Below, one piece after another: positions 19,181 through 53,432 of a stretch of 64,000 bases of DNA. The first letter of the stretch is position 1. Every line of letters starts with the position of its first letter. The DNA comes from Gammaproteobacteria bacterium. Lineage in GTDB: Bacteria > Pseudomonadota > Gammaproteobacteria > UBA4575. The DNA is taken from the NCBI GenBank assembly GCA_028279275.1, contig JANQOB010000006.1, forward strand, positions 188,799-252,798, given 5' to 3'. Both the position numbers and the translations under genes were made by a program. Under the pieces are notes generated by a model. It made no database searches. It worked only from the letters and a program-made list of their open reading frames with translations, and was not told the DNA's origin.

Positions 19181-19192
19181 TGGCGCGCCCGG
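19181..19192 (-). repeat. 12-nt remnant of the tRNA-Arg 3' end (TGGCGCGCCCGG)
   Basis: GC-rich 12-mer identical to the tRNA 3' end at 37057-37068 and preceded by similar AT-rich context as the other copies. Confidence 0.5.
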
Positions 19193-19735
19193 TAGTGAGT
19201 ACATGGAAGTACGAATATGAGACGCATCATAGATTATAGGAACATTATAAATAAAAATAATTGGAGAGATTATAAAATACATCCCTGTATTTTGCGCTAT
19301 GAACCCTTCGCCTGCAGCAATGTTGAAATTCGTTTCTGATGAATATGCCAGCCGGTTTTCTATCTCCCGCACTCAATGGATTTCTTTGTAATTAACCTTA
19401 CAAATATACAAACTCTGAACCTAACTCCAGACATCATTGACTACATACAAATTATCTTAATCCTGAAAACATCATAACAATTACTAAGCTTTATAAAAGT
19501 TTAATAAAGTTATTATGAAATGTTATTATATTAACTAATATTTACAGCGCTTTGTAAAAACTAAAAAGTGCTGTAAATAATTTTACCAAGGTTGGGCCAA
19601 GGTTGGGATTCACCCCTCTTTTAAATATTGATAAAGGAATATTTTTCATGGCTCCTATGTGGCTAGACATTTTTATTCAATAAATTTTTAGAAAAACTAT
19701 TTCTAATTTTTTACTTAAAATTTACTAAATAGTTA

Positions 19736-21607
19736 ATGGTAACTAATAGAAATAATAGTAAATCGATTCAACTGAAAATTTGTCATATTGCTGCCACAAC
19801 AGAGGGAGCAACTTGGATGTATGAACAACTTCGAGACTTAAGGTCAATTTATGGTTTTGATGTTTCTGCAATAATTTCAGGAAATAATGGAGCACTTGTA
19901 GATAACCTTAAAAAAAGTAATATCCCATTTCATGTTTGTGATTTTGAATTCATAGGTTCAAAAGACCTTCTCTCGCTTCCATTTAAAATTATTAAGCTTG
20001 CACGACTTCTAAGACGAGAAAAATTTGATGTTGTGCAAACACATCTATTCCATTCTATGGTGATTGGTCGGCTAGCTGCGTGGTTGGCAAATATTCCTGT
20101 AAGAATATCAATGATTGCAGGACCATATCACCTAGAAGCATACACACCCAAATGGGTTGATCGAGCAACATGTTGGATGGATTCAGAAATCATTGCTTCT
20201 TGTGAATACACTCGCAAACTCTATCGTGAAATGGGGGTTAAAGATAAAAATATAGGCCTTGTATATTATGGGCCAGATCAAAATAAGTTTGATTCCAGAA
20301 CAACTAAACCCGCGACTATACGTTCAGAGTTTGGCTGGGCAGCTGATACTCCTCTTATTGTAATGATTGCTTACTTCTACCCACCTCATTACCCCAGCCG
20401 CTGGACTCCTCCAGCACTTTGGGGGAAAGCACTCAAAGGACATCAAGATCTAATTAATGCTATGCCAATTGTTCTTTCAAGTATCCCTAAGGCGCGTTGC
20501 ATTCTAGTTGGTTCAGGCTGGGGCGAAGCAGGAATTGAATATAAAACCAAAATGGAAAAATTGGTCTCTTCACTTGGCTTGGATAAAGAAATTTTATTTA
20601 CAGGTTTTCGTACTGATATTAATAATATTTTACGTGCCGCTGACGTTTCAGTTCAGCCATCCTTGAATGAAAACTTAGGAGGAACTATTGAATCACTTCT
20701 CATGGAGTGCCCGACAGTAGCCACTCGAATTGGTGGAATGACAGATAGCATTATAAACAATAAGACTGGCATTCTCGTTGAACCATCAAATCCAAAAGAT
20801 CTAGCCTGCGGCATTATCAAAATATTAAAAAATCCTTCAAATGCAAAATTGTATGGTCACAATGGACGTCAACTAATGTTGAAGAAGTTTGTTCTTAGCA
20901 AAACGGTTTCTAATTTACAAAATATTTACATACGATTATACGCAAAGGCAAAAAAACAAGTTTATCTATTTGTACTATTAACACGTGCATTAATATTTAT
21001 TCCGTTCTCTGCATATTTTGCAATTCGATTATTTTTTATAGATATCTTATTTCTTTCCAAATGGGATGCAGGTTGGAGACCCTGGAAAATTAAAGCATTG
21101 CTACAAAGCATATATGCTCCTGTAAGATTTTTAAAACTTTTTCCTTATCACATTTATGGATTATTGCGAAGTATCTCAGCTAATACAAAAGCTCTTGAAA
21201 CTTGGGATCTAATTTTTGCCAAAATTAAATCAACTAAACTTGCCTTTCCACGTATACCTAATAAATCACTAATTTTTTTCCCGATAAAAAAGATTAACTC
21301 TCAATGGAATTTTTATATAAAAAATAAACTATTTAGGTTTTTGACCCAATTTTTTATAGAAGTGCGTTTAAAGATAATTTCCATATGGAGTTTTTATAAA
21401 AAAAGTAAATTATTTAAGTTCTGGAATCAATTTTTTGCTGAAGCACGTTTACTGAAGCAGGATCAACCAGACTCGATGCTAATAATTATCAAGATTCTGC
21501 CTTATCACATTTATGGCTTTGTCAGAGAATGCTTAGAAGGCACTAAAGCTCTCTATTATTGGGATCGTTTTTTGAAAAAAATACGCGAAAATGATAAAGA
21601 TCGATAA
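19736..21607 (+). CDS. GT4-family glycosyltransferase with unusual ~230-aa hydrophobic/aromatic C-terminal extension containing internal repeats
   Basis: GT-B fold pattern (...FTGFRTDINNILRAADVSVQPSLNENLGGTIESLLMECPTVATRIGG...); C-terminus repeats LPYHIYG twice. Confidence 0.7.
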   Translation: MVTNRNNSKSIQLKICHIAATTEGATWMYEQLRDLRSIYGFDVSAIISGNNGALVDNLKKSNIPFHVCDFEFIGSKDLLSLPFKIIKLARLLRREKFDVVQTHLFHSMVIGRLAAWLANIPVRISMIAGPYHLEAYTPKWVDRATCWMDSEIIASCEYTRKLYREMGVKDKNIGLVYYGPDQNKFDSRTTKPATIRSEFGWAADTPLIVMIAYFYPPHYPSRWTPPALWGKALKGHQDLINAMPIVLSSIPKARCILVGSGWGEAGIEYKTKMEKLVSSLGLDKEILFTGFRTDINNILRAADVSVQPSLNENLGGTIESLLMECPTVATRIGGMTDSIINNKTGILVEPSNPKDLACGIIKILKNPSNAKLYGHNGRQLMLKKFVLSKTVSNLQNIYIRLYAKAKKQVYLFVLLTRALIFIPFSAYFAIRLFFIDILFLSKWDAGWRPWKIKALLQSIYAPVRFLKLFPYHIYGLLRSISANTKALETWDLIFAKIKSTKLAFPRIPNKSLIFFPIKKINSQWNFYIKNKLFRFLTQFFIEVRLKIISIWSFYKKSKLFKFWNQFFAEARLLKQDQPDSMLIIIKILPYHIYGFVRECLEGTKALYYWDRFLKKIRENDKDR

Positions 21608-22859
21608 AGCATCAAAACGCAATTTGATTTTTCTTCTTGTCGCACAAGCAAGTGCTGCACTATTAGGTGTATTTGCATTTACACGAATTGCTCGAGAACT
21701 TCCTGTAATAGAAATGGGAAGATTTGGCTTTGCAGTCTACTCGACAGCGTTATTCGGACTCCTTGCAGAACTTGGTATTCGTTTTGTAGCAATGAAGGAA
21801 ATAGCAACCAGCCCGGAAAATGTTTGGCACTATCACCGCCATAGCGCATATATTCGCTGGTTGCTCGCAGCTCTTTCACTGATCCTTTTATCAGTAGTTG
21901 CATTAACCCCCGCATGGCGCGCGGAGTGGAATTTACTCATGCTAGGTGGTTTGCTCGCCATCACCCAATTTGGATCAGATCCTGCAACTTGGGTATTTTT
22001 TGGTCGCGGTCGTATTGATATTGGAGCAACAATTTTGATTATTGACCGTTTTTTATATCTCGTTGCCATACACATAGCTGCACAATGGTCGCCAAGTGCT
22101 GAAAGTTTAATAATAGGAGCTGTAACAGTAAATTTATTAAGAATGACTTTTTCCGCATGTTGGGTTCGTATGCAAATTAAAATTCAACCTAAAATCATTT
22201 GGGACAAATCATTATTTAGATACTTAATTGTCGATGGCGCAGCTATTGGTATTGCTATTTTGACTTTCTTTACCTATTCACAAATTACAATTGTTTTAAT
22301 GAAATCTTTCTCAACTCCAGAGCAACTAGGATATTATGCAATGGCATTTGGAGCCATGAGTGTTCTATTAGTAATACCAACATCATTAATAATGGCGCTC
22401 TTCCCCATTATGGCAACAACACTTGGAAAAAGTATTCAAGCTAATCGAGATCTTTTCTTCTGGTTTACTCGTTTAATTATGTTAGTCGCTGTGCCTATTG
22501 TGATCGTACTTCTTTTATTCGCTGATGATATCTTGGCAATTTGGATGGGAGCTAAGTATACACCTGCAACATTAGAATTGAAGATATTAGCCATTGCTCT
22601 AGTCTTTTCAGCAGCAAGTTTTCTTTATCGTATGTTTTTATTCGCATCCGAAAAATATAAGACTGAAATAACCATCAATGTTTCAGCAATTTTGGCCACC
22701 ATAATTATTGGAATTCCAATATGCAAAATTTATGGTGGAATAGGTGTAGCAATAGTTTATGTTTTCATTGAAGCAAGTGTAGCTATAACTAAAGCTGTAC
22801 TTACATGGTATAAGTCAAGCCACTCACTATCTTTTATTTCTCAAAAAAAGACTCTCTAA
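21591..22859 (+). CDS. polysaccharide biosynthesis/flippase-like multi-TM protein (Wzx/MOP-like)
   Basis: 422 aa, ~12 predicted TM helices, translationally coupled to the glycosyltransferase. Confidence 0.55.
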   Translation: MIKIDKASKRNLIFLLVAQASAALLGVFAFTRIARELPVIEMGRFGFAVYSTALFGLLAELGIRFVAMKEIATSPENVWHYHRHSAYIRWLLAALSLILLSVVALTPAWRAEWNLLMLGGLLAITQFGSDPATWVFFGRGRIDIGATILIIDRFLYLVAIHIAAQWSPSAESLIIGAVTVNLLRMTFSACWVRMQIKIQPKIIWDKSLFRYLIVDGAAIGIAILTFFTYSQITIVLMKSFSTPEQLGYYAMAFGAMSVLLVIPTSLIMALFPIMATTLGKSIQANRDLFFWFTRLIMLVAVPIVIVLLLFADDILAIWMGAKYTPATLELKILAIALVFSAASFLYRMFLFASEKYKTEITINVSAILATIIIGIPICKIYGGIGVAIVYVFIEASVAITKAVLTWYKSSHSLSFISQKKTL

Positions 22860-22875
22860 ATAGCCTCTATTTTAT

Positions 22876-22894
22876 TGGCGCGCCCGGAGAGATT
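22876..22894 (-). repeat. 19-nt remnant of tRNA-Arg 3' end
   Basis: TGGCGCGCCCGGAGAGATT; shares the G-to-A variant (GAGAGATT) with the 23047 copy. Confidence 0.6.
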
Positions 22895-23046
22895 GATTCG
22901 TGTCATCCATGACACTCACATTCGCTTCTCTCATGCGCCGCTAACGCAACGTCCAAATTTGCTGTCCTGCAAATTTGTCGAACTCTACCGTTCGAATAAC
23001 TCAAGATATGCCACTATATTAATAGCCTAAAAGGCTATAAATTTAG

Positions 23047-23093
23047 TGGCGCGCCCGGAGAGATTCGAACTCCCGACCACCTGGTTCGAAGCC
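23047..23093 (-). repeat. displaced copy of tRNA-Arg 3' half (acceptor/T-arm through anticodon loop); distal attachment-site repeat of Island B
   Basis: 47 nt matching 37057-37103 with 2 mismatches; similarity ends at the anticodon loop (TTCGAAGCC). Confidence 0.8.
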
Positions 23094-23271
23094 TAAGCTA
23101 ACACGCTAAACCCTTCTTAACACTAGTACCTACTAGTAACTCTTAAGTTCTTGTATTTAAAAATAAAGTTTACCAAAGCGTACAATGTAAGTATGCTTTT
23201 TTAAACGCTGCTAACTACTGCCAAATGAAAAATTAGTAAGCGTTTTAGTAAACTTTTTTACGGAGGAAATA

Positions 23272-24582
23272 ATGCCTAGACACAAGGAAGTTGATGTTCG
23301 GGTGCAAGACATACAACCTACCTTAAATGATAAGTCATTAATGGCTCTTCCAGTCCTCGAAAGGACATATGAGAAGTGGTTTTCTGGCAATAAGGGTTTA
23401 GGTATTTGTGTTACACCCAAAGGAACCAAAACGTGGTTGTTACGTTATCGACGCGACTCAGGACAGCTCATTAAAATGTCGCTTGGGCGATATGTTAGTG
23501 GGGAAATGCCAAGATCTCGCATCATTCCTATTAAAAAAGCCAAAGAACTTTACTTAGAAAATCGCTTACAAATCCTAAAAGGTGAAGACCCTGCCCAACT
23601 AGTTAAAGCCAAGAAAGAGCAAACTCGTAAACAATTAGCTAACGAAGCTGGAGCAATTACATTTGCTGGTTTAATTGAGGAATACATAGAACGTCACGCA
23701 AAACAGAAAAAGAAGTCATGGCGCAATGATGAATATTGTTTAAATAAGGAATTCCTCCCACCACTCGGAAATAGAAAAGCAAAAGACGTTACTCGTGCAG
23801 ATATCCGCAAAGTGTTAGACAAGATGGAGAATCGAGGTGTAACCACAGGCCAAAATCGAGCTTTAGAAATTGTACGCAAGATGTATAACTGGGGAATGAG
23901 TGTTGACCTAGTTGAACACAATCCTTGTACAGGAATAGAAAAGCCAGTGAAGGAAAAAGTTGGAGAGCGTTGCTTAGACGAAAAAGAAATTCGAAAACTG
24001 TGGCACTCACTAGAACACTACCCTATTAAAACTGCACTTGCAGTTAAGCTGATGGTTATTCTTGGTCCACGTGTCTTACAGTTGGTACAGGCTAAGTGGA
24101 CTGAATTTGATTTGGATACGGGAGTATGGATAGTTCCAAGTGAAAGAATGAAGGTTGGTAAGCCACATTTAACAATGCTCCCACCGCTAGCCATTAAGCT
24201 AATAAAGGAATTGCAGTCCTACACTGGTGAAACTGAATTCCTGTTCCCAAGCTCTGATACATCAAAACCTGTAGATTATCGCTGGCTAAACGCGGCTATA
24301 AAGAAATCTCCATACAAAAAACAATTAAAGGTAGATAACTTTTCTGCAAGAGATTTAAGACGCACAGCTGCAACACAATTGGCAAAATCTGGTGTCCCTA
24401 ATGATTTAATCGGGCGTATTCTCTCCCATACAGCTACTGGTGTAACTGAAAAGCACTATAACCTTTACCAGTACCAACAAGAAAAACTGGATGCCATGCG
24501 CAAGTGGGAAAATAGGCTAAATTTAATTATTAAAGATGAACTTCCTAAGAATGTAGTTGAGTTAAAGGTGGCTACTAGTTAA
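23272..24582 (+). CDS. int: tyrosine recombinase/integrase (P4-like)
   Basis: C-terminal R...ARDLRRTAAT...HY..Y catalytic pattern; adjacent to tRNA fragment. Confidence 0.85.
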   Translation: MPRHKEVDVRVQDIQPTLNDKSLMALPVLERTYEKWFSGNKGLGICVTPKGTKTWLLRYRRDSGQLIKMSLGRYVSGEMPRSRIIPIKKAKELYLENRLQILKGEDPAQLVKAKKEQTRKQLANEAGAITFAGLIEEYIERHAKQKKKSWRNDEYCLNKEFLPPLGNRKAKDVTRADIRKVLDKMENRGVTTGQNRALEIVRKMYNWGMSVDLVEHNPCTGIEKPVKEKVGERCLDEKEIRKLWHSLEHYPIKTALAVKLMVILGPRVLQLVQAKWTEFDLDTGVWIVPSERMKVGKPHLTMLPPLAIKLIKELQSYTGETEFLFPSSDTSKPVDYRWLNAAIKKSPYKKQLKVDNFSARDLRRTAATQLAKSGVPNDLIGRILSHTATGVTEKHYNLYQYQQEKLDAMRKWENRLNLIIKDELPKNVVELKVATS

Positions 24583-24584
24583 TT

Positions 24585-25109
24585 ATGGCTAAAGATACTG
24601 TAAAAAGGCTGGATCGCTTATTGGAAAAGCGCAAATGGCTAATCCATGCTAACGCTCGAGCTCTTACACGTAAACAACCTTATGCATTAACTAGTAAAGA
24701 AAAAGAATTACGAAAAATAATTCGCAAAGAATTTAAACCTGAACTAAATGTTATTTTGAACGGGAATACAAAAAATTCAGTGCGAAACTTTGTCTCTGTT
24801 AGAAAAGAGATGTTAAAAGTAAAACATAGACACAACAAAAGTACTGAGGATTTAATTTCTGAAGATTTTAAAGAATTTAATAATCAATACACTGAAAATC
24901 ACTATCATAGCAAAGGAGCTTTAGATAAAACGTATTACGCTCGATCAGACAAAAAACAATCTCTATATAAAGTTTTATATATGGCAATGCGAATTGACCC
25001 AAGATATAGGTGCATCATTAACAAGCACATTGAAAATGGTAAACTCAATATAAAAAATGAAGAAGTGATTGACGTTCTAGACGATTTTATTAACCGTTAT
25101 ATTGCTTAG
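24585..25109 (+). CDS. hypothetical basic protein
   Basis: 174-aa ORF 3 nt after int stop. Confidence 0.4.
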   Translation: MAKDTVKRLDRLLEKRKWLIHANARALTRKQPYALTSKEKELRKIIRKEFKPELNVILNGNTKNSVRNFVSVRKEMLKVKHRHNKSTEDLISEDFKEFNNQYTENHYHSKGALDKTYYARSDKKQSLYKVLYMAMRIDPRYRCIINKHIENGKLNIKNEEVIDVLDDFINRYIA

Positions 25110-27114
25110 CCTTAAACGCTTCGTGTTGTTCTGAATCTCTCCAATATTTTCTATCTGCGAAGTACACAATGCCTTTTGCCTTCTTACGGCTAAGTCTACC
25201 TTTTACAGTGTCATATGTGAGCTTGTCTAATATTATTGGATCACTTTTGTGCTTTTCTTTTAAAAATTCATGTACTTCTTTAGCAGTCATACCACTTGGG
25301 TGCTGTGTAAACATTTCTGCATATTCATCACCTTGTACTTCATTTCTTAGTGCATTTTCCAATAAGCCTTCTATTACCCACGCACCATATTCCTTTTCTA
25401 TAAAAGCAGCATAGTATTCTTCTGTCATTGTGCGCGCTTTAATATGAATTGCTGTGTAGTTACTACCCATATCTGGAGGAATTAGTGTTATTAAGTTTGG
25501 AACACCACCAAGCAATTTAACTGTCCCTCCTCCACGTAAATGATTAATTGCATTTGGGGACTTGGTGCTGTGATTTGACAATATAATCAAACAATTTTCC
25601 TCTGCTTGAATACGTTTTAATTCCCTTGTACATTCTTTATCATAATTGGAAGCTGATTGATTCGTTGGGCAAGGCTCTCGACAATCGTCGTACATATCTA
25701 ATATCAATGCTTCTAATTTATGCACTTTTATAAATTTTCGTATTGCTTCTGATCCACCTTCTTCAAAGAAGGATGCAGTTTCTTCATATGCAAATAGTAA
25801 ATTAGGATTGTTATATCTTTGCTTTGCTAATGCTCTTAATTTATCTATTTCTTTTCTCGGTATCGGGTCACTCCTTTCACCTCTCAATTTTGAACGAACC
25901 TTATTAGGTTTGCCCAAGTTAGCAACTAACGACAATTCATAGTCTGTTAATTCTTTTATTCGTTTATCTACGGTGGCTGCTCCATCTTCGGAATAGACAT
26001 ATGCAGTTCTCAGCGGCCTTTTAACCTTAAAATATCCACAGAAATCTGCACCAACACTGAATGCACCCGCCATCATAGTCAGCAATCTAGTCTTTCCAGC
26101 TTTTGGAGGTCCAGACACCATTGTTAAAACATTGTCTATAACACCCTCGATTACGGTCTCAATTGGTGCTGGAGGGTTAGCATCTTGAACATCGGAAGCA
26201 ATAACATCCGATTTCTCAATTAAGATTGGTAAAGATAAAAGTTTCTTTTTAGCTTTTACGTCAATAGTCGATAGGTTCTTTTTTACTTTGTGGAAGATGT
26301 AAAAATCATCTGGTCCTGTTGTAGGATTTTTATCTACTGCGGGAATCTTTACGATCTGAACTTCTTTTACACCCTCTTTCTTTAAAGAATCTACAAAACG
26401 ATATAAGAATTTTTTACTTTGATTTACCTTAGCTCTTTTATGCAACACATCATGGTCTGGAAATATTCTGACAGTCCTACCTACCCAATCAATACATTCT
26501 AAATCTGGATTCAACATCCCATCTTTATTAACACCGCATGCGATACCACCCATAGCAAGAGTTGCCTCTCCAAGGTGGCACATTAGTATTGCTGGCTTCT
26601 CACCTTCTACAATGTTAATTAGGTCAATTGGGTTAGTTATTACACTCTCCCAATTAATCTTAGACCCACGAGGAAAGAAAATGCGTGAGCCCGCATGATG
26701 TGACTGAGTGTACTTTCTTGGCTTCTTATCGCCTTTACGTTTTGCCTTTCCACCTAATAATTTGTATCTAAAGTGTGGCTCTAGCTTATCGTTTAAGATT
26801 GGAGCATATTCTCCATCCACAAATCCGACCGGTTCAAAATACGGAAACTCTATTGCCCCTATAGGAAAGACATCTTGTCGTTCATTCCATCCTTCAGAAA
26901 TTAAACGCTCTTTCGCTTCATCTTCATCTAATAACGTTATGTGGTTATTTGCTATTTGATCTGTGAATAATCCGCTACTTGCTAAATCCTCTTCGAATAA
27001 TTTTTGCGCTTCTTTTTTGTTGTATGCCTTTTTATGTTTGATTTTTTCTTGTTTTGTATTTATGTCTACTACGTTATCCTCTGAATCAATTACTTCTTTG
27101 TTTCCTAATGGCAC
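25090..27114 (-). CDS. Toprim primase / P-loop helicase replication protein (P4-alpha-like function)
   Basis: Toprim-like IVEGEKPA...IFPDHDV in N-terminal half; Walker A GPPKAGKT in C-terminal half; 674 aa. Confidence 0.7.
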   Translation of the reverse strand: MPLGNKEVIDSEDNVVDINTKQEKIKHKKAYNKKEAQKLFEEDLASSGLFTDQIANNHITLLDEDEAKERLISEGWNERQDVFPIGAIEFPYFEPVGFVDGEYAPILNDKLEPHFRYKLLGGKAKRKGDKKPRKYTQSHHAGSRIFFPRGSKINWESVITNPIDLINIVEGEKPAILMCHLGEATLAMGGIACGVNKDGMLNPDLECIDWVGRTVRIFPDHDVLHKRAKVNQSKKFLYRFVDSLKKEGVKEVQIVKIPAVDKNPTTGPDDFYIFHKVKKNLSTIDVKAKKKLLSLPILIEKSDVIASDVQDANPPAPIETVIEGVIDNVLTMVSGPPKAGKTRLLTMMAGAFSVGADFCGYFKVKRPLRTAYVYSEDGAATVDKRIKELTDYELSLVANLGKPNKVRSKLRGERSDPIPRKEIDKLRALAKQRYNNPNLLFAYEETASFFEEGGSEAIRKFIKVHKLEALILDMYDDCREPCPTNQSASNYDKECTRELKRIQAEENCLIILSNHSTKSPNAINHLRGGGTVKLLGGVPNLITLIPPDMGSNYTAIHIKARTMTEEYYAAFIEKEYGAWVIEGLLENALRNEVQGDEYAEMFTQHPSGMTAKEVHEFLKEKHKSDPIILDKLTYDTVKGRLSRKKAKGIVYFADRKYWRDSEQHEAFKAKQYNG

Positions 27115-27643
27115 TTCTTATTACTCCTCCGGTTAATAATTGTTTGTAGTCAAATTTATTAGCTGGTGTTTTAGCTTTAATACTATTTGCCCAAATTGCA
27201 TCATCTCTAACAATCCAATTGTAGAAACACTTTTCCAATACACTTTGTGAGTAATACCCGCCCTTTATTCGTTCTTGAGTGATCAACTCTTCTGAAGTTA
27301 ACCAAAAAGCACGCGCCCAAACCGGAGTTCGTGGCATTGAATTTGGACGCGTTAATATAGAGCTGCTAGGAGGGTCTGAAGCGTGTACGTCAGCAGCTCT
27401 AGTGCCTACTCGGTTTTGGTCAACTGTTGTGTAACCGAAATAAATTATAAATGGTGATCTGTTCTCTATCTTTTCAACTTCTTCAAATTCTGGTCTTGGC
27501 CATTGTGGTTCTTTTCTTATGTCGAAAAATTCTTCAATAACATAATACTGTGGGCATAGGTGTTTATTAATCCTTATGAACTTATGTTCATGGGCTAGTT
27601 TTTTTGTTGGGTGATCGATCACTGATGCGATTTGCTTTTTCAT
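27086..27643 (-). CDS. hypothetical protein
   Basis: 185-aa ORF overlapping primase start. Confidence 0.4.
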   Translation of the reverse strand: MKKQIASVIDHPTKKLAHEHKFIRINKHLCPQYYVIEEFFDIRKEPQWPRPEFEEVEKIENRSPFIIYFGYTTVDQNRVGTRAADVHASDPPSSSILTRPNSMPRTPVWARAFWLTSEELITQERIKGGYYSQSVLEKCFYNWIVRDDAIWANSIKAKTPANKFDYKQLLTGGVIRSAIRKQRSN

Positions 27644-27693
27644 ACAGTAGTTTCCTCTTCATTACTTATTTACCTCTTTTATTGATTAATAAA

Positions 27694-27906
27694 TTAAGCT
27701 GCAACCAGCTCTTTAGGGATCGAAGGTAGACCTTCCTCCATTATGCGTACACGCTCTGTGTCGGGAATTAATTTGCGGTTTCCGATTTTGACGGCTTTTA
27801 TCTGTCCGCACTTGATTCGTCTATATACGGTATTTGTATGTTCATGCAGAATTTCAGACGCAAAGGCTGGTACTGTCCATGTTTTTAAATTGATATCTTC
27901 GCTCAT
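27694..27906 (-). CDS. alpA: AlpA-family phage transcriptional regulator/excisionase-like HTH protein
   Basis: 70 aa; HTNTVYRRIKCGQIKAVKIGNRKLI MerR-like HTH typical of AlpA. Confidence 0.65.
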   Translation of the reverse strand: MSEDINLKTWTVPAFASEILHEHTNTVYRRIKCGQIKAVKIGNRKLIPDTERVRIMEEGLPSIPKELVAA

Positions 27907-44269: not shown

Positions 44270-44321
44270 TACCTACTGAAATAGACAGTAATAAACGGTA
44301 ACTATGTGAGATATTGGGTTA

Positions 44322-44552: not shown

Positions 44553-44580
44553 TTTAATTTTCCTTTATGGTTATGGTTGA

Positions 44581-44790
44581 TTAAAAGAGTTTGTGAGTCT
44601 TTGCTTCTTCTGGTGTGATTGATAGATTACTGATTGTTGTATTAATCACTTCTCCATCTTTAAGTAGATCAACAGTAACTGTGTAGTTACCTTCTTGATC
44701 AATACCTGAAATAACAGGTTCAGATTGATTGTCGTTAGACTTGTAATTTTCATTTAAGTAGTTAGTTACTTTTTCTATATTTAATTTCAT
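44581..44790 (-). CDS. hypothetical small protein (paralog pair member)
   Basis: 69 aa; shares GNYTVT...LSITPEE pattern with neighbour. Confidence 0.4.
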   Translation of the reverse strand: MKLNIEKVTNYLNENYKSNDNQSEPVISGIDQEGNYTVTVDLLKDGEVINTTISNLSITPEEAKTHKLF

Positions 44791-45331
44791 TGATTTTGTT
44801 TACCTATATTGGTTGGTTTGTTGTTTGAATTATCGGCTCTTTTTGCCTATGACTTTGATTAGCCATAAGCTGAGTTTTTTGACAGTTGTCAAGCAACTGA
44901 ATAACACAAGTAAGTACGTTGAGTTATTGCGACTCAATCTCAGGTGACAACTGTCAAGTTATAGAAACTTTGAATTATTCAGGTCAATTTCGTTTAGGTA
45001 CGCTAGATCTACTAACTACATAAAGGAGCTTGTTATGACATTAATGATTAAAGGATTTGAGATCAGTATTTGGTGGAACTCTATTTTCCTTGGTTGGGAA
45101 GAGGGATCTTGGTCCATTTATTTATGTAAGACCGATGGGATTATTGGAGATAAGATACTTTGGTAATTATTCAGTAATAGGAAATTAGACGGTAAATTAC
45201 AAGGAGATCTACCGTCTATCCTAGCTGTGCTACTAGGGAAAAGGAGTAAGAAACCTAGATTGGCACAATACAAATTCTTAAAATACACGTGAACCCCTAT
45301 AGTCTATTAAGGGTCTACGTGTTTTTCTAAC

Positions 45332-47110
45332 CTAGGCTACTTTAGAAAACCCAAATAGATTTGCATGTTTAACGAAGTGAGTAGCACGAGCCTTAAGATT
45401 ATTAAGGTTCCCCTCAACTAACCCTAGCATCGCTAGCTCATTCTTAAATATTGGATTGTCCCTCACACTCCTTTTGAAACTATCACTTCTCATATTAGTA
45501 GTATCAGTAATTTCCTTGAATGCTATCGGTCTATCTTCATATTCTAAACACTTAGTTATGTACTCTAAGGTGGTTGCTACTGCCGGAGGTGTCTTAGGTG
45601 TCTTAACGGTCTTAACCATCTTTAACTTACATCCTGGATAGATCTCTTGAATGTATTTAAAGATACCGGTGTTCTTACTTCCAAAAACATGTAATTCACT
45701 TGGCGGACAATCGTCCCTCATGCAACGTCGAATATTAGACCTACTAGTTCCTTGCATGATGTTTTCTTTGATCTCGCCAGACTTAATCAACGCGAAGTAT
45801 TCTTTATTAAGTTCCTTAGCGATGTCAGTCTCGGACCATAGGTGCCCCTTAGCTGTGTACTCACTATCTCTATAAACTAGAGCACTAGTCATGAAGGTTC
45901 GATCACAATCAGCAAACTCATTGGTAGCTTTATGTAATCCATATTCGCATTCAAATAGATCATCCCTTGAGATCGTCATGTTCAAATGTTTCTCAACTCG
46001 CTCTTTATACCCTGCTCCTTTATGTTGTAAGAATAGAGAGTGGTGAAATGGATCATTATTGATAACTTGTGCAATGATCTTTGCAATGGAGTTACGATTC
46101 TTAAGCTTGGTCTTTCCACTTGATATGTCGTAACCATAGACCATTAAATTCTTATAGGTCTTAGTTGCCGTTGCCAAACGAATGATGTTGTCTTTCTCAC
46201 GTTCTTGCAGTGGATAGGTACCTGCGACTCGTGCACCAGCATCTAATACGATTAGTGGGTAAAGATCTTGCGGAATTCTTAATGCATAATTAATTATTGT
46301 AGATGAATAGCTATCTTTGAACACTTTTGCGTATTTACCTTGTATAGACCATAGATCTAATACGGCATCCTTGATCTCATCACTTTGATCTTTCAGAGCC
46401 GGTACTAAATCATTCTTTGTAATATTAAATTTCTTCTCCAAATTAGGAATATATAGCAGTTCACCGTGCTCTAGTTCTTTCAGTTGCTTTAGAAGATCTT
46501 CCATATAATCGCTGAGACTCTTCTTAACTTTCATGAATGCAGTTACGGCACCAAACAACATCTTAGAGTTAACGGATACAGACGATCCTATGTCTAAGGC
46601 CTCATCCCATACACGGACTTGTCTTAGCTTTCCGTTATATAAGAATTCATTGTGATTCGATACAAGATCATTACCACATCGAGAATCAATCATTTGTTGT
46701 GTTGTGATTAAACATCTCGCATTGGTTGGTAAAGTATTACCTAAGCTATTAAGCTCATCATCAGATGTGTAGACAGCTATATCTTTCTTATCAATACCTA
46801 CTTCATCAACAAAAGTTTTTATTTGACTCTTGGTAGATAGCATGACCATAACACTCACATCAGCATGTTCATCGCTTACTAGCAATTCTCTGATCATAAA
46901 TATCAATGAAGTTGTTTTACCGATACCACAATCAATAGAACTAAGGTAAATCTTCCCATCTTCTAACTTATTATTAGCTGCATCTTCTATTGTAGTTAAG
47001 ATATCTTCTAGTGCGAGCCATTGCTGCTCACTGGGTAGGTGATTATGGCGGTTAAAGAACTTAACTTGTTTAAGCTTTGCGCTAGTGGCTAGCGGATATT
47101 CCCTCTCCAT
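45332..47110 (-). CDS. P-loop NTPase, helicase/terminase-like (unassigned)
   Basis: Walker A CGIGKTTS near N-terminus, VWDEALD Walker B-like, QGTSRSNIRR possible arginine-finger motif; 592 aa. Confidence 0.5.
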   Translation of the reverse strand: MEREYPLATSAKLKQVKFFNRHNHLPSEQQWLALEDILTTIEDAANNKLEDGKIYLSSIDCGIGKTTSLIFMIRELLVSDEHADVSVMVMLSTKSQIKTFVDEVGIDKKDIAVYTSDDELNSLGNTLPTNARCLITTQQMIDSRCGNDLVSNHNEFLYNGKLRQVRVWDEALDIGSSVSVNSKMLFGAVTAFMKVKKSLSDYMEDLLKQLKELEHGELLYIPNLEKKFNITKNDLVPALKDQSDEIKDAVLDLWSIQGKYAKVFKDSYSSTIINYALRIPQDLYPLIVLDAGARVAGTYPLQEREKDNIIRLATATKTYKNLMVYGYDISSGKTKLKNRNSIAKIIAQVINNDPFHHSLFLQHKGAGYKERVEKHLNMTISRDDLFECEYGLHKATNEFADCDRTFMTSALVYRDSEYTAKGHLWSETDIAKELNKEYFALIKSGEIKENIMQGTSRSNIRRCMRDDCPPSELHVFGSKNTGIFKYIQEIYPGCKLKMVKTVKTPKTPPAVATTLEYITKCLEYEDRPIAFKEITDTTNMRSDSFKRSVRDNPIFKNELAMLGLVEGNLNNLKARATHFVKHANLFGFSKVA

Positions 47111-47123
47111 ACATTACTTCCTT

Positions 47124-47423
47124 TTAGTTTTTTAATTCATCTCCAAACTCAGGCAGTTCTAATGATTCAAGCATGTTTACTTGCTCTGTCATGGGTGTGC
47201 CTTTACTGCAAGTTATCCTATTGTTCTTTAGAAACAGTATTGAACACCTAAGCATCCTTGAAATGTGGTCATTGTCTCCTTTACATGTCCCATTATTGAT
47301 CGAGGTGAGCTCTTTGATTAGATACTTCGTTATTTGACGATGTAATTCACACAGATCCTCATAGCTACCTGGCCCTTCTTCGAGCAAATAGTTATTGAAC
47401 ATATGATCTCCTTTCATATTCAT
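47124..47423 (-). CDS. hypothetical protein
   Basis: 99-aa ORF in operon with NTPase. Confidence 0.35.
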   Translation of the reverse strand: MNMKGDHMFNNYLLEEGPGSYEDLCELHRQITKYLIKELTSINNGTCKGDNDHISRMLRCSILFLKNNRITCSKGTPMTEQVNMLESLELPEFGDELKN

Positions 47424-47724
47424 TTATCACTTTCTCAACATTGGCATCTAACGTAAGCACTTTAAATCTTCTAAGGTGATCATGTGCAAGCAGTTCTAGT
47501 AATGCATTCGAATACTGAACATCTTTGTTGGTATACGTTTTAGTTGTGCCATTAATTGTTTTTGTATCATCACCTTTTGCGATACCACATGACCTTAGAT
47601 ACAGTAACCAATCTGCGATGTGTTGGTTTGGGAGGTGCTTATATGTCAATGCTTCTGTTTCATTTACGTCTTGATGCCACGTACTGACATCCATTAGTGA
47701 AACATCCTTTACATCAATTTCCAT
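47392..47724 (-). CDS. hypothetical protein
   Basis: 110-aa ORF, overlapping neighbours. Confidence 0.35.
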   Translation of the reverse strand: MEIDVKDVSLMDVSTWHQDVNETEALTYKHLPNQHIADWLLYLRSCGIAKGDDTKTINGTTKTYTNKDVQYSNALLELLAHDHLRRFKVLTLDANVEKVINEYERRSYVQ

Positions 47725-48028
47725 TAGTTACTTTCCTTTTGAATTCATTGTTAGCAGCCCTCGCCCATCGATACTTACCCACATTACGGATAAGTCTCTG
47801 TGCTAAATTATGTGGGTTACTCATTTGACGATTAAGATCACGGTTCACCAGGTCAATACCGTACCGAACCAGTTCACCATTACTACAGGACGCTCCGGTG
47901 GTCTCACTAACGAACTCCTTAGCGGCTTTCAGTTGAGATGCACTAAGACCATCAAGATTGATGTGATATGTTTTGAATTGTTTATCCATGATGTATTTAT
48001 TGATGTGATTGTGATGCAGCAAAAGCAT
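47714..48028 (-). CDS. hypothetical protein
   Basis: 104-aa ORF, first gene of 4-gene operon. Confidence 0.35.
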   Translation of the reverse strand: MLLLHHNHINKYIMDKQFKTYHINLDGLSASQLKAAKEFVSETTGASCSNGELVRYGIDLVNRDLNRQMSNPHNLAQRLIRNVGKYRWARAANNEFKRKVTNGN

Positions 48029-48057
48029 CAGTTACGAAAATTTTTAACACCGAATAA

Positions 48058-48490
48058 GCGGTGATGACGGTTCTACTTGTCTACAATTGGTATCTTTTTG
48101 CGTCAAGTCGATGTTTCACGCAGCAAACTTGACTTAAGAAAAGGCTTACCTAAGCAATTCTATAATTGCAGCTTTTATCTACAAATTTAAAACTTTAAAG
48201 CTATAGCATGAGTTATGGCTTATTTAGTAAAAACCTGCATCCCGAACACTCAGGCGATGTTTCACGCTTTTTTGAAAAAGTGATGACGGTTTTGTAGAGA
48301 AAAGTTTTAGAGATCTTAAACTCGGAGATTTGTCTACAAGTGAGGGCTTTTTTAAAATTACTTGTCTACAATAAAGCGCTTTTTACTATGTCACTGAAAA
48401 GTAGTGGTATTCAATTTTGATGACGGTTTTGTAGGGGAAAGTTAGTTTATACAGAATCTTAAATCTGTTGGTTGATTTGTCTACAAGTGG
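48058..48490. repeat. iteron block: three copies of TGATGACGGTT(T/C)T, four copies of TTGTCTACAA(G/T)TG, two copies of GATGTTTCACGC
   Basis: direct repeats at 48058/48281/48420, 48078/48331/48362/48476, 48110/48254. Confidence 0.55.
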
Positions 48491-48523
48491 TACCTTTTTC
48501 ATTATTCACATTTAATCAACCAC

Positions 48524-48847
48524 TTATGAATTACGCCTTGAGAGATAATATTCGTGCATATGTTGCAAGGTTTCCTCTAGTTCCCTCACCCTATTCACTA
48601 AATAACTTTCTCCGTAGACTTCGTCTTCAAGCTCAGCAATTCTCGCTTTCAACTTCCCTTCATTCTCAAGCAGTGACTTGTAACTGGTAGGTGTAGGGAC
48701 CAATCCCATTTGTTGCATCAACATGTAGACACTTTTACTAGACCATTTACCACCAAAGACTCCTCGATAACCCAGCATGTTTAGTCTCTCTGCAATAGTT
48801 ATTGATGGTACTTGTTGGTTAAACAGTTCTGTTACCAATTCAAGCAT
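48524..48847 (-). CDS. hypothetical small DNA-binding-like protein
   Basis: 107 aa; GGKWSSKSVYMLMQQ weakly reminiscent of recombinase-domain W...Y motif; C-terminal coiled coil. Confidence 0.3.
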   Translation of the reverse strand: MLELVTELFNQQVPSITIAERLNMLGYRGVFGGKWSSKSVYMLMQQMGLVPTPTSYKSLLENEGKLKARIAELEDEVYGESYLVNRVRELEETLQHMHEYYLSRRNS

Positions 48848-49532
48848 CTCAGGATCATGTCTTGGATCAACACGAGTTGCTGTTAATGGATTAATGATTA
48901 AGTCCTTATGTTGTTATTGTTATATGTATTAACGTAACCATGTTGCACACCTTTGCAAATGAGTTGTGGTAAATAGTATTTCTCATTTGAGCCTACCCCA
49001 CTGCAAACAAATGCAAGCATGCTTAAACCGATTTAGGTCTACCTCAATAAACCTAAACTCCACCAATGACACAGCGCATGTCACACTAAGTCATGTTCAA
49101 CTTGACCTAAACACACCTTAGCCCGCATAAACATTGACTTGTATACTCGGCAACGTACCGAGTCGTCCATGCTTAACAGACTGTTGCTCGTGTTAAATAA
49201 AGGTAATTTTGCGTTCAGATTGGTGTTTGGATAGGCATACGGGGGGTATCGCGGCGCCAACTTCATCATCATAGGCTCTCACAAATTTCTTATATTTTTA
49301 TCGGAGCCACACATTCAAATAAATTTGTCCGAATCTAAAAGAAATTGTGAACCGCAACATGTCAAAAAGAGGATAAATATCATACGGGATTCTATGTACC
49401 CGTGTGAAATGGAATCAGCAGCTTACGTTCTATGTGTACTTGTGTTTAACCGTATGTGTGATTCTAGGCGTGGTAATTTTGTGGTTTTTTGAGTAAAAAT
49501 TCTCAAAAATAGCCCATTTGTTGCCCGGTTTA

Positions 49533-50033
49533 TTATCGATTTTTTTTACGGATTTTAACTGCTTCCTCAACTGCATTCGATAGGTGCTTACTTATCCAAG
49601 CATATCTCTCTTTGCTGTTACTTCCACCTGGGTTATAACACTTAACAATTGTTGAAAGTTTTTTCTTCGATGGCCCATGAGTAATGTAATCAAATGGGTT
49701 GAGCCCCTTATTTGAAGTTAATCCTTTTAAATTCTTTAGACCATGAATGCATATACCCACTACACCCATTCCATCATCCCACGACTTTATAATTTCATAA
49801 TTAATCCACTTTCTTCTAGCTGTATTAGTACCAACTAAAACAATTGTGCAGGACCTACCATGCATCTGAGAAGCAATCCAATTTTTAATAGCTTGCTCAC
49901 CCTGACTTTTTATTGATTCCCAATTATTATCATTCGCAGGTCTATTGCCATCAACTATACCCATGTTTCTAACTTGTGCTGCTCGGTTGCAATCTGGTGC
50001 ATAGTGAAAACTATAAAAACATTGACGAGCCAT
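49533..50033 (-). CDS. TIR-like domain protein, ThsB-like (DUF1863 family)
   Basis: QCFYSFHYAPD N-terminus, ...AIKNWI..QM.G.SCTIVLVGTNTARRKWINYEIIKSWDDGMGVVGICIHGLKNL closely follows the ThsB/DUF1863 pattern (FFSFHY...WVNYEI..SW..G). Confidence 0.7.
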   Translation of the reverse strand: MARQCFYSFHYAPDCNRAAQVRNMGIVDGNRPANDNNWESIKSQGEQAIKNWIASQMHGRSCTIVLVGTNTARRKWINYEIIKSWDDGMGVVGICIHGLKNLKGLTSNKGLNPFDYITHGPSKKKLSTIVKCYNPGGSNSKERYAWISKHLSNAVEEAVKIRKKNR

Positions 50034-50045
50034 AAAATCACTCCT

Positions 50046-50444
50046 TCATTTAAATACTAAGAGAACAACGAGTATTGCTGTAACAATTGATCCATGAAAA
50101 ATAATCAAAGTTTTTGAAAAAAATGTATCCCACCACATTCGCGTCCCACCGCTTAACCCCTCCAATTTCATAGAAAAATCGATTTCCTCAGGATCAATCA
50201 TTCTCACTTTTTCATAAAGATCTCTATAGCTTCTCTCTAGTGCTAAAAAATATGCATCTAATCCCCAAAACGCTAGTGCAGGTAAGTATGCGAGAATAAT
50301 AAATCTAATATTTGAATTTCCAGTAGAGAGTGCAAATAATGCAGAAACAAGAATTACGCTCCAACCTTTAAGTAAGAAGGAGTTAGTTGATAATCGATTA
50401 ATAACGCCTTGGATAAAATCTAGATGTTTTAGTTTTCTATCCAT
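50046..50444 (-). CDS. small 3-TM membrane protein (SLATT-like candidate)
   Basis: 132 aa, three hydrophobic helices; 13 nt upstream of TIR gene. Confidence 0.45.
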   Translation of the reverse strand: MDRKLKHLDFIQGVINRLSTNSFLLKGWSVILVSALFALSTGNSNIRFIILAYLPALAFWGLDAYFLALERSYRDLYEKVRMIDPEEIDFSMKLEGLSGGTRMWWDTFFSKTLIIFHGSIVTAILVVLLVFK

Positions 50445-50455
50445 TAACTCAATAT

Positions 50456-50998
50456 TTAATGTGGTTCAGTTCCCCGAGTATCAATCCAACCCGCGGTGTA
50501 AATACTGAGAGTTGAATCTGCCTCTGTCTTTTCTGAAATTGTAAATTCCATAATTGTTGGTACCTTATATTGATTTTCACTAGGTAACCACAAGTTGCGT
50601 AGTGCAATTGGAGTTTTGTCATTAGCAGTAGTTGAAAAAGATGAAATATATTCAGAACCTTTAACACGCACTTTGCCAGCGATTCGTCCTTTATCTGAAA
50701 TAAATAACAATAATAAGTAATCTGTTACACTTGGAGGAACATTTTTCATTTCAACTTCAGTCCAAACCTCTTCTAATGCTTTCGATTCTTGATATACCAG
50801 CTCCATCATTTGCTGTATATCCGTGGTATTTGATTGTAATTGAGCTAATTGCTCTTTCAATATATTTTGTTCTTTTGAAGCTATTTCTTCCTTTTTTTTC
50901 TCTTCAATTTTACCAAAATGATATGATCCATATCCACCTAATGCGGTCAATATGATCCCGCAGAGTAGTATCAATTGACTAAGCGTTTGCAACGTCAT
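50456..50998 (-). CDS. membrane-anchored protein with coiled-coil and beta-rich C-terminus
   Basis: 180 aa; N-terminal TM LILLCGIILTALGGYGSY, then EEKKKEE coiled region. Confidence 0.45.
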   Translation of the reverse strand: MTLQTLSQLILLCGIILTALGGYGSYHFGKIEEKKKEEIASKEQNILKEQLAQLQSNTTDIQQMMELVYQESKALEEVWTEVEMKNVPPSVTDYLLLLFISDKGRIAGKVRVKGSEYISSFSTTANDKTPIALRNLWLPSENQYKVPTIMEFTISEKTEADSTLSIYTAGWIDTRGTEPH

Positions 50999-51013
50999 AT
51001 GTTTTTACGTTTA

Positions 51014-51634
51014 CTACTCTCCAAGTGAACCTCTATTTAATGCTGCAAAAATATTTTTTACTTTTAAAACAATTTTATATAACTCAGATTTTAGAGTTTT
51101 ATAGAAGGTAATACCTTTCATGAGTCTTACCTCCAATGCGTTACGCATCGGATCTATTTCACTAGAAAATGCTTCATTAAATTTTTTATCGTTTTCCTTC
51201 CAGGCGTCTTTATTAGCACTAAATAATAATAATGATGCATCGAATAATTTATTTCTTAATGCATTAGCCATATCCAACTCTTCGCTTTCTAACCCATAGT
51301 TAAGAGCAACAAGAGCTTGCACTTTTGAAGAATTTACCAAATCATCTATTTTATTTTTATGAACTGTAATGTTTTCTCGAGGATAGTTAGCTTCTTTACC
51401 TGCATATTTTAGTTTGTAGTAGATATTTACTTGTCGTAAATGAAAATATATTTCATCAAAGAATTCTACAACCGATGCAGCAGTTTCATATTTTCTATCG
51501 CAGATAACACGAACATGTTGATAAAGTATTGCAAGTACTGTTGCTATTAACGCACCAAGTAGCCCAGAGATTAAATTATCCATAGTAGAATATGCTGTAA
51601 AGATAGTCTCATAGGCTCTTAAAAAATTATTCAA
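51014..51634 (-). CDS. membrane-anchored hypothetical protein
   Basis: 206 aa; TM LISGLLGALIATVLAILY then helical soluble domain. Confidence 0.45.
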   Translation of the reverse strand: MNNFLRAYETIFTAYSTMDNLISGLLGALIATVLAILYQHVRVICDRKYETAASVVEFFDEIYFHLRQVNIYYKLKYAGKEANYPRENITVHKNKIDDLVNSSKVQALVALNYGLESEELDMANALRNKLFDASLLLFSANKDAWKENDKKFNEAFSSEIDPMRNALEVRLMKGITFYKTLKSELYKIVLKVKNIFAALNRGSLGE

Positions 51635-51812
51635 TTATCCCTATAAACGGCATCATCGCTTTACGTTGCGCTGCCTTTAGTCGTTGCACGCGTTTATCTA
51701 AATTATTAGCACGCGCTAATTGCTCTTGATAATTTTCAGATATCTGATTCCGTAAGTATTCACAAATTCTTAGTTCGCGCTCACATTCTGTTTCGTTGTG
51801 ATTATTGGTCAT
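51627..51812 (-). CDS. hypothetical small protein
   Basis: 61-aa ORF, overlaps next gene start by 8 nt. Confidence 0.3.
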   Translation of the reverse strand: MTNNHNETECERELRICEYLRNQISENYQEQLARANNLDKRVQRLKAAQRKAMMPFIGIIE

Positions 51813-51821
51813 AGCTTTTAT

Positions 51822-52361
51822 TCAAAATAATTTTATTATTAATAAAAATATACCGATAAATACAGGGATAGCATCTGCAAGAATCCTGTAATCAAAAATA
51901 ATTAAGTTGATTAAAGCTCTAAATTTATGACTCTTTGTTGCATGGCTGCTTGTATGTTTCCATATATCATATGAATCGACATTGTCATCAGTAAGTATTC
52001 CTACATCTGTTACTTCGATGTTCGCATCTTTTAAAACAATTCCATTTAAAATTGATACATACGCGGAGTATGGGCCAGATATATAATGGAAAGTATCACC
52101 ATTCTTTTTGTACGTTGCAGTGTAATAATGCCATGTTGCTTGTATATGCATTGCTATAAACCAAAACAAAATTACAGGCAGAATATAATTGCTAACAATA
52201 TTCCATGAAATATTTCCTTCTAACCCCCCGTAGCGCACACCAGTAATCTTAAAATTCGCAAACTCAATCAGCACCACTAAGAAACTTGTATAAATTAGTG
52301 CACGTCTTTCTGATTTGTATCGATCATATGCTCTTATAAATTGAGCTTCATATGTGTCCAT
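51822..52361 (-). CDS. 3-TM membrane protein
   Basis: 179 aa, three hydrophobic helices incl. C-terminal IPVFIGIFLLIIKLF. Confidence 0.45.
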   Translation of the reverse strand: MDTYEAQFIRAYDRYKSERRALIYTSFLVVLIEFANFKITGVRYGGLEGNISWNIVSNYILPVILFWFIAMHIQATWHYYTATYKKNGDTFHYISGPYSAYVSILNGIVLKDANIEVTDVGILTDDNVDSYDIWKHTSSHATKSHKFRALINLIIFDYRILADAIPVFIGIFLLIIKLF

Positions 52362-52432
52362 TTATCTCATCCATCCCAACTTCAATTCAAGCATCATTCG
52401 CTCGTTGCATTATAAAATCCTTCTGCGATTAG

Positions 52433-53074
52433 TTATAACACGTCCATATAATAGTATTTGCCATTATTACAATCTCTGGATATTACATAATAAATATTGT
52501 CAATTGCTACGCAAGTACCAAATGAAAGGCATGAAGATATTCTAAGTTTGGCAGCTTCAAAATTGTGCTCATATGGATATGATTTACTTGCTTCAAGCCC
52601 TTTAAGTATCGGATAAAGAGCGAGCCAAATATCAAAAATGTATCTATGTTTTTCATTGAATGACTGAATATGTGCAATTACACCTTGATTAACAAGAGCT
52701 TTGGAATCAAGAAAGCGAAAGTGTGTATCAATATAATCTTTAATCGATGTACCGTCTTCAAAATCTTTCTCAAGAAAGTTTTCTAATTTGTTTATATAAA
52801 AATTAATATCTTCACGTGCGGAATTAATAAAAGCTTGATCATGTTGGTGCTTGCCAATTGAGCGTTGAATTAATAATTGATTAGCCAGTATAAACAGGGC
52901 TACAAGTGCTATGAGTGGAGAATATATACCAGTTAAATAAGATCCGAACTCAGACCAATTAGAGTGCTCAGTAGATAGTGAAAATCCAAATTGATAAATA
53001 TAGAGCAACAGAGGTAGCAGTAGGATACAAACTGCCAACAAAATCAATAATATTAGTTTGGCTTTAACTTTCAA
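52433..53074 (-). CDS. 2-TM membrane protein with ~130-aa soluble C-terminal domain (first gene of TIR operon)
   Basis: 213 aa; TMs LILLILLAVCILLLPLLLYIY and LIALVALFILANQLLI. Confidence 0.45.
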   Translation of the reverse strand: MKVKAKLILLILLAVCILLLPLLLYIYQFGFSLSTEHSNWSEFGSYLTGIYSPLIALVALFILANQLLIQRSIGKHQHDQAFINSAREDINFYINKLENFLEKDFEDGTSIKDYIDTHFRFLDSKALVNQGVIAHIQSFNEKHRYIFDIWLALYPILKGLEASKSYPYEHNFEAAKLRISSCLSFGTCVAIDNIYYVISRDCNNGKYYYMDVL

Positions 53075-53160
53075 TTGATACGAGTTCTTATAGCAATATA
53101 TCTATTAATGCTATTCATTTCTTTATGTTTATCACAATATTTCTGGAGAATCTTTAATGG

Positions 53161-53186
53161 CCGCTTTGGGTCGTTTGCAGACATTT
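53161..53186 (+). repeat. Island C motif copy E
   Basis: CCGCTTTGGGTCGTTTGCAGACATTT, ~85-110 nt upstream of the TIR-operon first gene. Confidence 0.55.
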
Positions 53187-53393
53187 GATTTACATTATTC
53201 GACTTAGATTTATCTATTATAAGGGTGTATCTAAAAAGTTATAGACACAAAACACCAGCGACTCTACTGCTGTGACAAAATTGTGTCATGTTACCGTTTA
53301 TTTACTACGATTAAGGCACAATTTATAAAGGTAAGGTTGTAACTGTGTTATGTAAGCGTATGTTTTTATTTACGCTATTTTTTAGATCTTTGA

Positions 53394-53432
53394 TTCGAAG
53401 CCAGGTACTCTATCCAGCTGAGCTACGGGCGC
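53394..53432 (-). repeat. displaced copy of tRNA-Arg 5' half (acceptor/D-arm through anticodon loop)
   Basis: 39 nt identical to 37095-37133; similarity ends at anticodon loop. Confidence 0.8.

Follow-up and report, generated by a model that had tools for sequence, protein, structure and literature searches.

How a single tRNA gene can be occupied by integrated elements on both of its sides, and how much of the original gene is left when this has occurred, are questions raised by a locus in a stretch of 64,000 nucleotides (nt) of gammaproteobacterial DNA of the UBA4575 lineage (contig JANQOB010000006.1, positions 188,799 to 252,798; the window). In the window, the gene for tRNA-Arg(TCG), at 37057–37133 on the minus strand, lies between Island B (23094–37056, plus strand, 13,963 bp), on the side of its 3' end, and Island C (37134–53393, minus strand, 16,260 bp), on the side of its 5' end. 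We consider it highly probable that these are two unrelated, independently integrating islands, satellite-like or defensive in character, each of which recombined with the anticodon loop of this one tRNA gene. To judge from the alleles carried by related genomes, the working gene is a mosaic of element-borne halves, the 5' half and its upstream DNA coming from Island C and the 3' half, with a G-C variant in the T-stem, from Island B.

The tRNA gene, its partial copies, and the empty site

ARAGORN calls a single tRNA in the window, the tRNA-Arg(TCG) at the location given above, in agreement with the original prediction for this DNA. Partial copies were located by blastn, with the tRNA region and its flanks as the query against the window, and all of them are direct repeats on one strand, the minus strand. 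The outer end of Island C is marked by a copy of the 5' half at 53394–53433, spanning tRNA positions −1 to 39 with 100% identity (E = 1.6e-17); it is perfect, as had been claimed, but at 40 nt is one base longer than the 39 nt proposed. The outer end of Island B is marked by a 47-nt copy of the 3' half at 23047–23093 (positions 31–77, E = 6.4e-17), which has the 2 mismatches that had been described. Two shorter copies of the 3' end are present at 22876–22894 (19 nt, 1 mismatch) and 19181–19192 (12 nt, perfect). The terminal 3' 12-mer, TGGCGCGCCCGG, occurs four times in the window, on a single strand throughout (0.00 expected from 100 shuffles), and the core TTCGAAGCC occurs exactly three times, at 23085, 37095, and 53394 (0.38 expected).

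The sole stretch present in both repeat pairs is GGCTTCGAA, as read on the tRNA strand (37095–37103, minus strand, tRNA positions 31–39), and it is made up of two stem bases and the 7-nt anticodon loop CTTCGAA. Since the half-copies overlap only here, both duplications stop at the anticodon loop, as had been proposed. Each block of identity has one edge at the loop and the other at an end of the gene (positions 31–77 for Island B and −1 to 39 for Island C), the arrangement that defines the anticodon-loop class of attachment (att) sites, and the 7-nt loop would be the overlap, or crossover, region for both integrases.

Relatives of the locus were found by using the GlpD-like gene to the right of the array as a probe and taking one genome per species. 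The nine loci obtained are from uncultured Thiotrichales-like gammaproteobacteria, seven of them with an intact tRNA-Arg(TCG) next to the GlpD-like gene. In the closest relative, L002 (87% amino acid identity in the flanking GlpD-like gene), the right flank, an intact tRNA, and the flank that lies left of 19181 in the window succeed one another with nothing between them and no partial copies; window positions 59144–53391 align with L002 6011–11763 and window positions 19192–13423 with L002 11787–17536. Because this site is uninterrupted and collinear, all of 19193–53393 (34,201 bp) is inserted DNA. The 19-nt and 12-nt copies had both been taken for older scars, and both are indeed present, but because the alignment with L002 resumes at the 12-nt copy, this one is the original chromosomal 3' end, with the native downstream flank beyond it, and forms the outer boundary of the 34.2-kb array. 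Island B is missing from L002 to L010, and neither integrase homologues nor extra half-copies were found at this locus in the relatives. The island-free allele with which a comparison had been recommended is therefore available in L002, and fragments predating the islands were not seen for either Island B or Island C.

The origin of each half of the live gene can be read from its differences from these native alleles. The two mismatches in the 47-nt copy constitute one base pair of the T-stem, which is G-C in the live tRNA and A-T in the copy; the change is compensatory, so both alleles derive from functional tRNAs. The A-T form is present in the native tRNAs of all seven relatives and in the 47-nt fragment, and the 19-nt copy holds the one of the two variant positions that falls within its span; the G-C form is found only in the live tRNA. 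As the native tRNAs of the relatives resemble the displaced fragments in this respect, the 47-nt fragment is taken to be the resident half and the live 3' half to have been brought by Island B, which bears out the earlier suggestion that a G-to-A variant would reveal the element-derived copy. As for the 5' half, the intact tRNA in L002, L004, L007, and L010 occupies the position of the 5' fragment of the window, beside the same flank. This displaced fragment retains the native upstream flank; in front of the live tRNA, by contrast, is the 3' end of the integrase gene of Island C, the element supplying the 5' portion of the gene.

A mechanism of the following kind would account for this arrangement. 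The attP of Island B would carry the 3' half of the tRNA, and the island would insert downstream of the gene, displacing the native 3' half to 23047–23093. The attP of Island C would carry the 5' half, preceded by upstream DNA of the island itself, and its insertion upstream of the tRNA would displace the native promoter and 5' half to 53394–53446. The live tRNA would then consist of element-borne halves joined within the 7-nt loop, and the tandem array would be completed by earlier events on the 3' side, represented by element R and the remnant of Island A (both described below). Islands B and C would be expected to excise independently of each other.

The two integrases and the polarity of integration

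Both islands show the features by which Islander defines an island: the intact tDNA and a co-oriented fragment (the 40-nt 5' fragment for Island C and the 47-nt 3' fragment for Island B) bracket an integrase gene, and the interval is not in L002. Both integrase open reading frames are intact, and the repeat of Island C is perfect over its 40 nt. The integrase of Island C, int_C (37170–38201, minus strand), is a 343-residue tyrosine integrase (PF00589, E = 2.6e-35, 122 bits against a cutoff of 27), whose catalytic residues R187, K214, H273, R276, W299, and Y308 are invariant across 35 homologues (alignment A1). It scores far under the cutoffs for XerC, XerD, and integron integrases and is therefore neither a Xer nor an integron enzyme. 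The reading frame of int_C terminates 36 nt upstream of the 5' end of the tRNA, on the same strand, so that the target has the reversed orientation.

There are 814 homologues of int_C at E ≤ 1e-10, and 160 related loci were drawn from viral contigs and metagenomes. When int_C alone was scanned against viral contigs, only three distant matches resulted. In 63 of the 160, a tRNA is located within ~90 nt after the integrase, on the opposite strand each time, and the canonical relatives with both ends visible have direct repeats that extend from tRNA positions 31–33 to the 3' end, which places the int_C family in the anticodon-loop class. In contrast, the reversed layout is found in six of the seven closest sequences, int_C of the window included (45–100% identity), at Arg, Gly, and Ser tRNAs. 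A same-strand tRNA follows the integrase after 31 nt in P0003 (64% identity to int_C; tRNA-Gly(GCC)) and after 30 nt in P0005 (47%; tRNA-Ser(TGA)). The contigs of P0004 (51%) and P0006 (49%) end, after the integrase, at the 5' beginning of a tRNA-Ser and of a tRNA-Ser(TGA), respectively; after P0007 (45%) comes a tRNA-Ser(TGA) whose 5' half has decayed. The remaining sequence, P0002 (66%), is canonical, with the 3' end of a tRNA on the opposite strand. In a neighbour-joining tree, int_C and six relatives, among them P0002, P0003, P0004, P0005, and P0007 (P0006 was left out), form one clade apart from the canonical members. On these comparisons, reversed polarity is apparently inherited within a small clade of integrases.

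The gaps between integrase and tRNA in the five other reversed members, at three different tRNAs, are 30–47 nt, and the distance from the integrase stop codon to the anticodon is 65–71 nt in the reversed loci versus a median of 70 nt (interquartile range 55–87) in the canonical loci. The geometry of Island C would thus correspond to a tRNA flipped about the dyad of the anticodon stem-loop, with the attP architecture conserved; such a flip would keep the distance from the integrase stop codon to the crossover (~70 nt), the intervening segment being the sense 5' half and not the antisense 3' half. The palindromic TTCGAA of the Arg(TCG) loop was considered as a requirement for use of the loop in both directions and was rejected, since the reversed relatives use the non-palindromic loops of Gly(GCC) and Ser(TGA). 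In the locus of P0007 (L096, 11075–11215), the 3' half of the tRNA-Ser(TGA) is intact, the 5' half is degenerate, and ARAGORN calls no gene; one possibility is that the element integrated in the reversed orientation and that decay of the 5' half it had brought has left the target gene dead.

The integrase of Island B, int_B (23272–24582, plus strand, 436 residues), is at the tRNA-distal end of its island and is transcribed away from the 47-nt copy, from which its start is separated by 179 nt. It has the arm-binding, central, and PF00589 domains of a P4-type tyrosine integrase (PF13356, Arm-DNA-bind_3, 43.7 bits; PF22022, Phage_int_M, 39.5 bits; PF00589, Phage_integrase, 79.7 bits), and an HDLRRT motif that is invariant in the alignment of its homologues (alignment A2), the closest of which are at most 39% identical. 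A scan of viral contigs with int_B alone gave zero matches, and its relatives were found by a scan with the alignment of int_B homologues. Four of these loci (L113, L114, L116, and L135) share a layout in which a 45–57-nt copy of a tRNA 3' half is followed by 190–320 nt, the integrase gene, ~9–10 kb, and an intact tRNA on the opposite strand. Island B might be regarded as non-canonical, its integrase being far from the tRNA, but this idea was discarded because all four family loci in which both ends can be checked have the same layout. Island B is an ordinary member of its integrase family, and the repeats of that family point to crossing over at the anticodon loop.

Alternative explanations and expression of the live tRNA

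Several points weigh against the explanation in terms of two independent islands and a clade of reversed polarity. The window is a metagenome-assembled contig. The closest homologue of int_C, P0002, is canonical, so polarity is not strictly fixed in the clade, and the neighbour-joining tree carries no bootstrap support values. A displaced 5' fragment was not found in the 10-kb upstream flanks of L094, L095, L096, and L097, in which the elements are probably longer than the flanks; because the far ends of these other elements are outside the 10-kb flanks, the generality of 5'-half duplication is drawn solely from the relative polarity of integrase and tRNA. Finally, a consensus scan of the tRNA strand from 36900 to 37500 found no convincing sigma-70 promoter between int_C and the tRNA from which the live tRNA would be expressed.

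The alternative that survives best, although it is improbable, is that Island C, the tRNA, and Island B are a single composite element of 30.3 kb that inserted in the anticodon loop by way of the 9-bp core, splitting the resident tRNA and bringing a spare one. The outer fragments (53394–53433 and 23047–23093), which share only the 9-nt core, do together make up one native tRNA, and the tRNA inside carries an allele other than the native one, both of which such an insertion would produce. However, int_C-like integrases adjoin tRNAs that have no B-like island beyond them (L094 and L095), the reversed-clade loci having ordinary chromosomal genes there (e.g. a urease operon and SelO), and B-like elements occur alone with 45–57-nt repeats of their own. 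In addition, each integrase in the window occupies the place that is usual in its family relative to its own repeat pair, and identities of 40 and 47 nt are the prediction of two attP sites that each carry half of the tRNA.

It is less probable still that the contig was misjoined through the repeated tRNA halves and that the two-sided arrangement exists in no cell. The source is a metagenome-assembled genome, and the short-read contigs L001 and L261 break inside the tRNA repeat, but the repeats are just 40–47 nt, below the read length, and the Logan k=31 assembly of SRR20820731 contains a 16,316-nt Island C contig, both ends of which fall within the 40-nt repeat at the points expected if the repeat is real. 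Furthermore, the flanks on both sides are collinear with L002, and the spacing at the junction of int_C and the tRNA is as in L094 and L095. The proposal that Island C is a canonical 3'-half element, made to look reversed by an inversion or rearrangement that took place later around the tRNA, draws on the canonical layout of almost all family members, P0002 included, but may be set aside as the least likely of all, because every copy is a direct repeat on one strand, the 5' fragment is on the native promoter flank at exactly the position of the intact tRNA in the relatives, neither inverted-repeat scars nor a 3' fragment at 53.4 kb is present, and the same polarity in five other clade members at three different tRNAs indicates an inherited arrangement and no local accident.

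The live tRNA is separated from its original promoter. The native −10 box, TATAAT (53441–53446, minus strand), is 8 nt upstream of the displaced 5' half and now 16.3 kb from the live tRNA; the region is conserved as CCGTTATAAT in L002 and L007, and the consensus scan missed the box because its −35 element is poor. Upstream of the live tRNA, the only candidate recognized by eye is a weak TTGAAG-17-TTATCT, and in the relatives L095, L097, and L260, TTGATATATAA is found just upstream of the tRNA. The spacers between integrase and tRNA in the window (37134–37165) and in L094 (11063–11093) have a common motif, AATTAGG...GGTTAT, directly before position +1 of the tRNA. Because this motif is shared although the tRNAs differ (Arg and Gly, respectively), it is taken to belong to the element, where it may bind the integrase or act as an unconventional promoter. 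It is also possible that the live tRNA is transcribed by read-through from int_C, as 17 of the 18 Island C open reading frames of at least 90 residues that were counted as genes run in the direction of the tRNA, the exception being that at 43780–44190 (plus strand).

A more far-reaching view, which we hold to be rather doubtful, is that the integrase clade switched the polarity with which it reads tRNAs, moved between targets of three kinds (Arg, Gly, and Ser), and on one occasion returned to the canonical form, and that the tRNA-Arg(UCG) of the host, lacking any native part or promoter, is expressed by way of Island C through cotranscription of int_C and the tRNA. If this were true, target polarity would be set by the half of the tRNA carried in attP as opposed to the enzyme, and the expression of tRNA-Arg(UCG) by way of Island C would amount to a dependence of the host on the element.

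Relation to known elements, older layers, and cargo

Islands with 5' tRNA fragments are reportedly known from Zhao and Williams in 2002, and an anticodon-loop class of tRNA att sites is said to have been defined by Williams in the same year. In Islander, 159 of 3919 islands have 5' fragments, 2083 have anticodon-centred attP sites ("site A"), and tandem arrays of two or more islands number 125, those of three or more 4 (PMC4383910). A second paper describes 5'-fragment islands as "considerably less frequent," citing Zhao & Williams 2002 (PMC6563490), and tandem reuse of regenerated cores is treated in the TIGER paper (PMC7192596). The original view that duplication of a 5' half is uncommon is in keeping with the Islander figure and with the finding of a same-strand tRNA after the integrase in none of the 63 homologous loci outside the close clade of int_C. 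Docking on the 5' side is therefore uncommon yet already known, and the locus combines known behaviours; what it adds is modest, namely a two-sided occupancy that leads to a fully element-derived tRNA and a clade in which reversed polarity is the rule.

The reversed (5'-portion) tRNA elements are reportedly like Island C in having a tyrosine integrase, an attP with the 5' portion of a tRNA, a far end marked by a displaced 5' fragment, and a gene regenerated with upstream DNA of the element. Unlike that precedent, the reversal in Island C can be traced to a small clade, with three target identities (Arg, Gly, and Ser) and one canonical member, that is nested in a canonical anticodon-loop family. 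With the anticodon-loop att class the islands share identity blocks that begin or end at the loop, dyad symmetry in the flanking stem, and, in their relatives, repeats that start at positions 31–33, but Islands B and C differ from it in reaching one loop from opposite sides, which brackets the overlap to ≤9 bp. As in tandem island arrays, a regenerated core has been reused, nested 3' fragments (47, 19, and 12 nt) represent older events, and integrase-less remnants are present; here, however, the intact tRNA is in the middle of the array and not at its end, a consequence of the 5'-side docking of one member. Island B resembles the P4-type satellite-like and defence islands in the domain architecture of int_B, a size of ~10–14 kb, a primase-helicase, terminase-like genes, and defence cargo (AbiD). 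In P4 itself, the integrase adjoins the tRNA and the core is short and 3'-terminal, whereas Island B has its integrase at the tRNA-distal end and its crossover in the anticodon loop.

The locus is thus a natural and fully bracketed case, complete with an empty-site allele, in which two unrelated integrases make use of one anticodon loop from either side; their common overlap region is narrowed to ≤9 bp, and the locus suggests that a working tRNA gene can be built wholly of mobile-element DNA. The reversed clade can be used to ask what sets polarity and how a regenerated tRNA stays expressed, and for island-finding software the locus is a case in which the intact tDNA is in mid-array instead of terminal. 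Current understanding is not overturned by it.

Two older layers lie between Island B and the native downstream flank. Element R (22876–23046, minus strand, 171 nt) is made up of the 19-nt copy and the 152 nt that separate it from the 47-nt copy; it ends in the 19-nt copy (25 nt if a 4-nt insertion is allowed), which reproduces the 3' strand of the tRNA acceptor stem plus CCA. It directly follows the intact tRNA in L003 (11985–12150) and L004 (11800–11971), the latter also retaining the 3'-end copy, and is not in L002. Because L003 and L004 have element R and lack Islands B and C, the 19-nt copy predates both islands. Element R is ~86% conserved between species, compared with 70–78% identity for flanking genes, and its predicted fold has a z-score of −3.35, with eight pairs showing compensatory changes among only three sequences; nothing in Rfam matched it credibly. 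Element R may represent a structured RNA cotranscribed with the tRNA or the scar of a miniature island. The adjoining 3,683 bp (19193–22875, plus strand), not in L002 or L003, is read as an island remnant, Island A; by Pfam, it carries a glycosyltransferase gene and a polysaccharide-biosynthesis (flippase-like) gene. Neither this remnant nor element R contains the integrase gene that Islander requires of an island.

The cargo of Island B, in addition to int_B, includes DUF3854/AAA_25 primase-helicase-like, TerS-like, and TerL-like genes, AbiD (Abi_2; 33181–34077, minus strand), and an SOS-response-associated peptidase (SRAP; 34549–35136, plus strand). An SRAP is also present, together with a UmuC-like polymerase, in the reversed-clade element L096. 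In Island C, int_C is accompanied by genes for a helicase-like 592-residue protein, a TerS-like protein, a PDC-M50 candidate defence pair (49533–50444, minus strand; M50A of 132 residues and M50B of 166 residues, the latter with a ThsB-like TIR), and a PDC-S45-like protease with a trypsin fold (41719–42438, minus strand). The 592-residue protein has 21 homologous matches, a 639-residue protein of L094 not being among them, and its assignment is a helicase/primase hint only. Just upstream of the integrase P0004, a CBASS-like pair of patatin and SMODS cyclase genes is found (L097, 5991–8434).

Just outside the array, at 16821–18660 (minus strand), are genes for a LexA-like S24 peptidase/repressor and a Y-family polymerase (IMS), which are syntenic in L002 and L003 and are therefore chromosomal and not part of the islands. 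In L006, a 19-nt copy of a tRNA-Arg 3' end (5118–5136) lies ~150 nt downstream of a separate tRNA-Arg(ACG), which suggests that old integration scars may be present at that gene as well.

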